From Escherichia coli (GTDB lineage Bacteria; Pseudomonadota; Gammaproteobacteria; Enterobacterales; Enterobacteriaceae): DNA of 64,000 bases. This document shows, in pieces, positions 12,498-13,049 of this stretch (the stretch's first letter is position 1; each line of letters begins with the position of its first letter). A program made the position numbers and the translations under genes. The notes under the pieces were generated by a model that was not told the DNA's origin, made no database searches, and saw only the letters and a program-made list of their open reading frames with translations. Location: NCBI RefSeq assembly GCF_030013205.1, contig NZ_CP122648.1. One strand, given 5' to 3'.

Positions 12498-13049
12498 ATG
12501 CACCTGCTTCCTGAACTCGCCAGCCACCATGCGGTGTCAATTCCCGAGCTGCTCGTCAGCCGGGATGAAAGGCAAGCACGGCAACACGTCTGGCTCAAGC
12601 GCCATCCTGTTCCACTGGTCTCCTTTACCGTGGTTGCGCCTGGGCCGATTAAAGACAGCGAGGTCACACGCGGAATTTTTAATCATGGCGTGACAGCCTT
12701 GCGTGCCTTAGCCGCAAAACAGGGCTGGCAAATTCAGGAGCAGGTTGCACTGGTTTCCGCCAGCGGGCCGGAGGGCATGTTGAGCATTGCCGCCCCGGCT
12801 CGCGACCTCAAGCTCGCCACCATTGAGCTTGAACATAGTCATCCTCTCGGGCGGTTATGGGATATCGATGTCCTGACACCCGAAGGCGAAATTCTCTCCC
12901 GCCGCGACTATTCACTGCCGCCTCGCCGCTGTCTGTTGTGCGAGCAAAGCGCAGCTGTTTGCGCGCGTGGAAAAACCCATCAACTGACCGATTTACTCAA
13001 CCGCATGGAGGCGCTGCTGAACGATGTCGATGCCTGCAACGTCAACTAA
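12498..13049 (+). CDS. citX: apo-citrate lyase phosphoribosyl-dephospho-CoA transferase
   Basis: 183-aa ORF; matches CitX. Confidence 0.93.

Follow-up and report, generated by a model that had tools for sequence, protein, structure and literature searches.

Overlapping gene pairs joined by an ATGA or a TAATG junction are the described systems closest to the overlaps considered here. [quoted passage not shown] Native E. coli ATGA pairs, none of them from the region treated below, have been examined by a reporter assay; four of five were strictly coupled, and the coupling depended on the Shine–Dalgarno (SD) sequence, whereas the native ATGA pair bioB/bioF was found to be uncoupled (PMC6728339). 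The efficiency of reinitiation drops steeply with the distance between stop and start codon, as determined for downstream distances alone (PMC10666635). Short distances are 4.5-fold enriched among genes for subunits of complexes. On the other hand, simulations free of selection reproduce the excess of 4-nt and 1-nt overlaps (PMC3887535). [quoted passage not shown]

We analysed a stretch of 64,000 bases of the E. coli chromosome (the window), which extends from ybeF/lipA to cusS and runs opposite to the K-12 map. The genes are arranged in the order ybeF/lipA, dpiAB, citCDEFXGT, ybdO(citR)-ybdNM, the ent/fep cluster and cusCFBA/cusRS. Since the chromosome of strain ETEC4079 (NZ_CP122643.1, 3606694–3670693) is 100% identical to the window over all 64,000 bases, the RefSeq/PGAP coordinates of this strain could be carried over base for base; all annotated open reading frames translate cleanly. 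With these coordinates the following overlaps are obtained:

6639–6670, minus strand, dpiB/dpiA overlap of 32 nt
10043–10046, plus strand, citD/citE ATGA overlap of 4 nt
13024–13049, plus strand, citX/citG overlap of 26 nt
24458–24485, plus strand, ybdN/ybdM overlap of 28 nt as annotated
31242, minus strand, entB/entA overlap of 1 nt (TAATG)
38419–38422, plus strand, fepD/fepG ATGA overlap of 4 nt
39408–39411, plus strand, fepG/fepC ATGA overlap of 4 nt
40220–40223, both strands, convergent fepC/fepE overlap of 4 nt
45446–45449, minus strand, ybdZ/entF ATGA overlap of 4 nt
63840–63850, plus strand, cusR/cusS overlap of 11 nt

All eight overlaps that the initial annotation had listed were recovered with exactly the sizes given there, and its gene identities were correct; two overlaps, entB/entA and cusR/cusS, had been missed. 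The window contains 40 co-directional neighbour pairs, nine of which overlap. The two genes of each of these nine pairs share their orientation, and a terminator or a promoter would not fit between them. The genes belong to the known operons citCDEFXGT, dpiBA, fepDGC, fes-ybdZ-entF, entCEBAH and cusRS. The tenth overlap, fepC/fepE, consists of a palindromic TTAA in which the two genes have their stop codons, a TAA on either strand, and no terminator-like site was found between the two genes in the region 39800–40700. As fepC and fepE are convergent, translational coupling is impossible and irrelevant for this pair.

The overlaps had been described as extensive, yet normal for E. coli operons. 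The second part of this description is correct, the first is not justified because the frequency does not differ from the K-12 average: 8 of the 40 pairs in the window lie within −8 to +6 nt as compared to 24% in K-12 (binomial p=0.71). With five overlaps of 4 nt, a single one of 1 nt and four long ones, the lengths match the general prokaryotic mix of about 45%, 15% and 40% (PMC3887535). Moreover, the K-12 distances of these very pairs have been tabulated by Huber et al. 2023 (PMC10666635 Table S2), with −26 for citX/citG, −32 for dpiB/dpiA, −28 for ybdN/ybdM, −11 for cusR/cusS and −4 for each of citD/citE, fepD/fepG, fepG/fepC and ybdZ/entF. The overlaps are real, ordinary, typical in frequency and already catalogued, their sizes being dependent on the annotated start codons.

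In our preferred reading, to which we assign a probability of roughly 80%, these are ordinary intra-operon overlaps of two kinds, short ones that allow reinitiation and long ones that result from stop codon drift. In the short overlaps (citD/citE, fepD/fepG, fepG/fepC, ybdZ/entF and entB/entA) the downstream start sits on the upstream stop, behind an internal SD element, so that a ribosome ending the upstream protein could restart at once at the overlapping start codon. Such termination–reinitiation would keep partner proteins matched, namely FepD-FepG-FepC, the citrate lyase subunits and YbdZ-EntF. In the long overlaps (citX/citG, ybdN/ybdM, dpiB/dpiA and cusR/cusS) drift would have carried the upstream stop codon past the beginning of the following gene. 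The ATG of that gene, with its SD element inside the upstream gene, would stay put, while the upstream tail could grow or shrink over unconstrained, linker-like residues. Translation of the downstream genes of the long overlaps may be aided by the shared mRNA, and for citG and ybdM at least a de novo start at the gene's own ribosome-binding site is possible.

At most of the downstream starts an SD element is embedded in the upstream coding sequence just before the start codon. The duplex energies range from −6.9 to −10.4 kcal/mol at a spacing of 3–12 nt for citE, citG, fepG, fepC, entF, entA and cusS; weak elements precede the first ATG of ybdM (−5.6 kcal/mol) and dpiA (−2.3 kcal/mol). Apart from citG, which is described below, the elements are:

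citE, GGGAGGA, 6 nt upstream of the start
fepG, GAGGTGG, 3 nt upstream, paired in a predicted local hairpin that is not significant (z = −1.32)
fepC, CAGGAG, 10 nt upstream of the start
entF, CAGGAGG, 3 nt upstream of the start
entA, GAGGTGA, 4 nt upstream of the start
cusS, GAGGTG, 3 nt upstream of the start
dpiA, the weak element GAAAGTGA, −2.3 kcal/mol
ybdM, AAAGGAA 10 nt before the annotated ATG, and GGGGGA with a 4-nt spacer before the ATG at 24470

The RNA around the nine downstream starts (−60 to +40) was folded; the z-scores relative to shuffled sequences ranged from −1.32 to +1.34, none of them significant, so that a general model based on RNA structure at the junctions is not supported. 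An Rfam scan of the whole window returned no family at any overlap.

Whether a downstream gene can be initiated on its own has been recorded for K-12 by INRI-seq, in which start sites are mapped with retapamulin in a cell-free system on isolated fragments, spanning −30 to +150, of every gene (PMC9825163). On such fragments translation of the upstream gene is impossible, and the K-12 junctions differ from those of the window by a few bases at most. For the nine downstream genes the published results are (PMC9825163):

citG, stand-alone initiation with 10–13 CPM in 5 of 5 replicates
ybdM, stand-alone initiation with 35–43 CPM at the annotated ATG
[quoted passage not shown]
entA, weak stand-alone initiation
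citE, dpiA (citB/b0620), fepG, fepC and cusS, no stand-alone initiation seen

Non-detection in five of nine cases against a background of 30% (p=0.10) is suggestive at most; the method may not be sensitive enough, or the leader of 30 nt in the constructs may be too short. The least structured junctions are those of citG, ybdM and entF (z from +0.64 to +1.34), which are three of the four stand-alone initiators; the junction of entA (z = −0.28) lies among those of the non-initiators (−1.32 to +0.61).

These results bear directly on the assumption of the initial annotation that an overlap by itself indicates coupling. This assumption did not hold, as citG, ybdM and entF initiate alone in vitro and fepC/fepE is convergent. 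An overlap alone does not prove coupling. Among the nine downstream genes three are clearly independent in vitro, and entA is weakly so. What has been observed are the coordinates of the overlaps, their conservation, the SD elements and, for K-12, initiation on isolated fragments; from these we infer coupling to different degrees. Judged by this analysis, coupling is likely for citD/citE, fepD/fepG and fepG/fepC. For ybdZ/entF and entB/entA a non-obligatory coupling is possible. The robust stand-alone initiation of entF resembles the uncoupled pair bioB/bioF, and since entF as part of an ATGA pair initiates well alone, short overlaps need not be obligatorily coupled. For the long overlaps coupling is unproven and would be at most partial, given that citG and ybdM can start de novo.

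The conservation of the short overlaps in the cit operon differs from junction to junction. The ATGA overlap of citD/citE recurs in Salmonella and Edwardsiella. An ATGA overlap is also present between citC and citD in Salmonella and Edwardsiella, whereas in E. coli the two genes are separated by a gap of 14 nt; here citC contains a TGA where the other two have TTA, and CitC is thereby 6 residues shorter. By this comparison E. coli appears to have lost the citC/citD overlap without apparent harm.

Such a loss would be in line with the idea that all the overlaps are neutral by-products of genome compaction and of drifting starts and stops, every downstream gene being initiated at its own SD sequence and functional coupling being absent. 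This explanation agrees with the length distribution, which selection-free simulations reproduce (PMC3887535), with the own SD sequences borne by the junctions and the initiation of entF, citG and ybdM alone, and with the uncoupled state of bioB/bioF (PMC6728339). We nevertheless regard it as quite unlikely: the strict coupling of four of the five native ATGA pairs tested (PMC6728339) and the 4.5-fold enrichment of short distances among complex subunits both speak against it, citE, fepG and fepC have good SD elements and yet gave no stand-alone signal, and the citD/citE ATGA is kept in three genera.

The long overlaps were considered in turn, beginning with citX/citG. The relevant features of this junction are:

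12498..13049, plus strand, citX, citrate lyase holo-ACP synthase, 183 aa (NF002383, 262.6 bits at a cutoff of 158; PF03802)
13024..13902, plus strand, citG, triphosphoribosyl-dephospho-CoA synthase, 292 aa (NF007503, 640.9 bits at a cutoff of 477; PF01874)
13007..13011, plus strand, SD-like GGAGG of citG, 12 nt before the ATG at 13024, best duplex −9.3 kcal/mol
13030..13032, plus strand, second in-frame ATG of citG (Met3), non-conserved, which would give an overlap of 20 nt

Both proteins match curated family models above the cut-offs and are encoded in a citCDEFXGT context. The ATG of citG occupies positions 13024–13026 and the stop codon TAA of citX positions 13047–13049, the frame of citG being one base ahead of that of citX. 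The SD-like GGAGG lies inside citX, in the Met-Glu-Ala codons of the motif RMEAL. In all five Enterobacterales genera compared the relation of the two frames is identical, and the length of the overlap varies: 29 nt in Salmonella, 26 nt in E. coli, 23 nt in Edwardsiella, 23 nt in Yersinia ruckeri and 20 nt in Providencia. The ATG at 13024 is the conserved one, corresponding to the second of the ATGs in Salmonella, while the position of the citX stop varies. GGAG or GAGGAG elements derived from the "(M/I)E" codons of CitX precede the citG ATG by 7–12 nt in five of five genera, and the length of the CitG N-terminal region is kept across 15 Enterobacterales homologues. The Pfam domain of CitX ends at residue 175 of 183 and that of CitG begins at about residue 21–26; the overlap codes for C-terminal residues of CitX that follow the former and for N-terminal residues of CitG that precede the latter. 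As neither domain extends into the overlap, both reading frames are only weakly constrained here. No significant RNA structure was predicted at the citX/citG overlap (z about +1).

A similar picture was obtained for dpiB/dpiA. On the minus strand the ATG of dpiA is located at 6670–6668 and the stop codon TGA of dpiB at 6641–6639. The overlap amounts to 32 nt in E. coli and Salmonella and to 8 nt in Edwardsiella. In Edwardsiella the position of the dpiA ATG relative to the receiver motif LIVEDE is unchanged, and the tail of DpiB is 7 codons shorter. A TTG at +21 of dpiA was considered as part of a TTGA overlap and rejected, as the TGA is outside the dpiB frame and the TTG is absent in Edwardsiella; a start at this non-conserved codon would leave an overlap of 11 nt. 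As far as can be judged from these alignments, a fixed start combined with a moving stop fits the standard stop-drift model of overlaps (PMC3887535).

In the case of ybdN/ybdM the start codon is less clear. The annotated ATG of ybdM at 24458 is situated inside the conserved GAATGGGG (Glu-Trp-Gly) of YbdN/IbrA, and among YbdN/IbrA homologues the upstream gene ends 16, 28 or 40 nt after GAATGGGG. A further start codon has to be considered:

24470..24472, plus strand, second in-frame ATG of ybdM (+12), which would give an overlap of 16 nt with ybdN

In the INRI-seq data this +12 ATG reached 93 CPM as compared to the 35–43 CPM at the annotated start (PMC9825163, Table S3). It is plausible that both ATGs, 24458 and 24470, are usable. 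The overlaps had been regarded as useful for fixing start codons; this applies to citG with its conserved ATG at 13024 but not to ybdM, where the +12 ATG is the stronger one in vitro. Reassignment to the second ATGs (citG 13030, ybdM 24470) shortens the overlaps and never removes them.

One could go further and ascribe the long overlaps to faulty annotation, with citG, dpiA and ybdM in fact starting 3' of the upstream stop codon. Gene callers prefer long open reading frames, very long overlaps have been ascribed to mispredictions (literature cited within PMC3887535), and the fact that the +12 ATG of ybdM gave the higher peak in vitro would be in line with this idea, although even with that start ybdM would overlap ybdN by 16 nt. 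The positions of the codons make the idea extremely improbable. In the citG frame a TGA occupies 13018–13020, which leaves the ATGs at 13024 and 13030 as the nearby starts, and in Salmonella an ATT is found in place of the latter; the next in-frame start is at +84 nt (13108), within the conserved "WRAML" region. For dpiA the next in-frame ATG follows at +54 nt, likewise inside conserved protein sequence, and for ybdM a TTG at +57 nt comes next after the two clustered ATGs. In addition, the ATG positions of citG, dpiA and ybdM are conserved across genera, and INRI-seq peaks coincide with the annotated starts of citG and ybdM (PMC9825163). The annotated starts of citE, citG, dpiA, fepG, fepC, entF, entA and cusS fit conserved positions and internal ribosome-binding sites.

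Is coupling obligatory at the long overlaps as well? All co-directional overlaps, including those of 11–32 nt, would then act as obligatory coupling devices, and back-sliding of the ribosome over 8–29 nt would be the main route to DpiA, CusS, CitG and YbdM. For dpiA and cusS, without stand-alone initiation in vitro, and in view of the weak SD element of dpiA, this would be attractive, and the sensor/regulator pairs DpiB-DpiA and CusR-CusS plausibly need fixed ratios. The frame of the citX/citG overlap, kept across five genera, could be read in the same way. Adhin and van Duin reportedly observed in 1990 back-scanning reinitiation over tens of nucleotides in phage constructs. We consider obligatory coupling unlikely, since isolated fragments sufficed for initiation at citG and ybdM (PMC9825163) and the length of the overlaps varies, with 20–29 nt for citX/citG and 8 versus 32 nt for dpiB/dpiA. 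The steep distance dependence of reinitiation, established for downstream distances alone (PMC10666635), makes termination–reinitiation appear doubtful at overlaps of 26–32 nt. A further argument comes from Klebsiella pneumoniae, where citX and citG are found at separate loci (PMC2735749); with the two genes unlinked, tight coupling is dispensable for the pathway.

A more unusual possibility, suggested by the position of the citX/citG overlap in the linker of natural CitX-CitG fusions (see below), is that this overlap is more than a product of drift: a +1 frame change at a low rate within 13024–13049 would yield a CitXG fusion enzyme in E. coli or, more modestly, there would be back-sliding over 8–29 nt at dpiB/dpiA and cusR/cusS. 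We regard this as very improbable. If true, back-sliding would extend termination–reinitiation beyond the very short distances now thought necessary. A programmed +1 frameshift of the prfB type was rejected for the citX/citG overlap on the basis of its sequence: no slippery repeat-type codon is present in the overlap (GATGTCGATGCCTGCAACGTCAACTAA), the only SD element nearby (13007–13011) is 35 nt before the citX stop as compared to about 3 nt for a prfB-type shift site, and folding revealed no stable structure 3' of the overlap.

Returning to our preferred reading of ordinary short and long overlaps, the short ones correspond to the coupled ATGA and TAATG pairs (PMC6728339, PMC10666635) in being co-directional and operonic, in overlapping by 4 or 1 nt and in having an internal SD element; several of them likewise encode interacting proteins (FepDGC, the citrate lyase subunits, YbdZ-EntF). 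An overlap of 4 or 1 nt is found for citD/citE, fepD/fepG, fepG/fepC, ybdZ/entF and entB/entA and not for citX/citG, ybdN/ybdM, dpiB/dpiA and cusR/cusS. Among the latter, citX/citG, dpiB/dpiA and cusR/cusS belong to the 3n+2 class and thus resemble the long overlaps formed by 3' elongation (Fukuda 2003; PMC3887535), whereas ybdN/ybdM (28 or 16 nt) is of the rarer 3n+1 class. The fixed ATG and the moving stop of citX/citG, dpiB/dpiA and ybdN/ybdM were deduced from an unpolarised cross-genus comparison, which fits elongation and truncation alike. The significance of the overlaps hardly goes beyond housekeeping, with ybdM flagged as having two plausible starts.

The overlap had also been taken as support for the pairing of ybdN with ybdM. 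The pairing is real, but it follows from the synteny of IbrA/IbrB and from co-regulation instead. By sequence comparison YbdN and YbdM can be regarded as an IbrA/IbrB-like pair: YbdN is related to phrog_2302 (E 4.5e-77) and matches PF01507 and PF11922 above the cut-offs (PAPS-reductase plus DUF3440); YbdM is related to phrog_2159 (E 1.6e-67), its ParB_N score of 24.5 bits being just under the gathering score of 26.3. IbrA and IbrB genes are adjacent in four phage genomes, from phages of several phyla. The order IbrA-then-IbrB with an overlap is shared by Escherichia phage PhiR5_2 (16 nt) and a Clostridium phage (20 nt); a Streptococcus phage has the same order with a gap of 20 nt, and in a Microcystis phage the order is reversed, so that an IbrA/IbrB pair cannot be defined by the overlap. 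In contrast to the phage pairs, the chromosomal ybdNM genes are situated behind citR/ybdO and are repressed by CitR; deletion of citR (ybdO) de-represses ybdN and ybdM, which have been called the ybdNM operon (PMC9068703). A role of ybdNM as a defence system was also considered and dismissed, PADLOC having returned weak sub-threshold matches to DndC, BrxP and a methyltransferase.

For citX/citG a natural fusion offers a further comparison. When CitX was used for an exhaustive search, the 150 best relatives included about 28 with a length of 408–545 residues and CitX at the N-terminus, and in eight of eight long relatives scanned CitX was followed by CitG. One cluster of these fusions is from Stomatobaculum longum, others are from metagenomes, and one has been named "holo-ACP synthase/triphosphoribosyl-dephospho-CoA synthase" by JGI. 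The residues encoded by the overlap (CitX "DVDACNVN", CitG "MSMPATSTK") align with the variable inter-domain linker of the fusions. As an observation in its own right, the citX/citG overlap, frame-conserved at 20–29 nt, falls exactly in the fusion-linker region. The fusions thus share with E. coli the order CitX then CitG and a linker corresponding to the overlap residues, and both arrangements co-produce two consecutive enzymes of citrate lyase prosthetic-group synthesis. They differ in that CitX and CitG of E. coli are separate proteins in different frames, which a single-base frame change would fuse. CitX and CitG therefore occur unlinked, overlapping or fused, E. coli representing an intermediate linkage that the pathway does not require, and this series is a tidy textbook case of consecutive enzymes becoming physically linked.

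A difference between E. coli and its relatives was found at the 3' end of citC (9733-9752), where E. coli carries TGA and Salmonella and Edwardsiella carry TTA. In the latter two genera citC and citD overlap by the sequence ATGA, whereas in E. coli the genes are separated by a 14-nt gap. Because TGA replaces TTA, CitC of E. coli is 6 residues shorter and the overlap has given way to the gap. The citC/citD junction is a natural case of overlap loss inside the same operon.

The start of ybdM offers two ATG codons in the same frame, 12 nt apart (24458-24472). Cell-free start-site mapping of K-12 genes gave peaks at both, the one at the second ATG being stronger (PMC9825163). 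Either the main start is other than the annotated one, or two isoforms are produced.

We also observed near-zero spacers in four convergent gene pairs:

25087-25088, ybdM/ybdL, spacer 0 nt
27444-27454, hcxA/ybdD, spacer 9 nt
36053-36057, fepB/entS, spacer 3 nt
40220-40223, fepC/fepE, spacer -4 nt

These spacers are too small for terminators, and therefore the transcripts must enter the opposing gene. No terminator was found at fepC/fepE, the only one of the four pairs that was scanned.

Two adjoining features between uspG and ahpF probably represent a strain-specific insertion (17929-18520):

17929-18387, minus strand, IS200C transposase gene
18397-18520, STnc490 Hfq-binding RNA

Elsewhere in the window the hokE/sok toxin-antitoxin locus is duplicated in tandem (50269-51070), with identical hokE copies and a sok antisense RNA (Rfam RF01794) for each:

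50269-50421, hokE copy 1
50413-50568, sok of copy 1
50772-50924, hokE copy 2
50916-51070, sok of copy 2

Strain K_EC180, near-identical elsewhere, has one hokE/sok copy instead of two, a difference of about 503 bp. The remaining Rfam matches above gathering score were:

2983-3341, cspA-type thermoregulator leader, on cspE
16411-16519, rnk leader
21035-21128, sRNA STnc70, upstream of ahpC
49427-49468, ES036, between fepA and entD

The linkage of citX and citG differs among bacteria. Among the closest CitX relatives from other phyla, about one fifth are fused to CitG in one protein of 408-545 aa with CitX at the N-terminus. In Enterobacterales, by contrast, the two genes overlap, whereas in Klebsiella they are unlinked.
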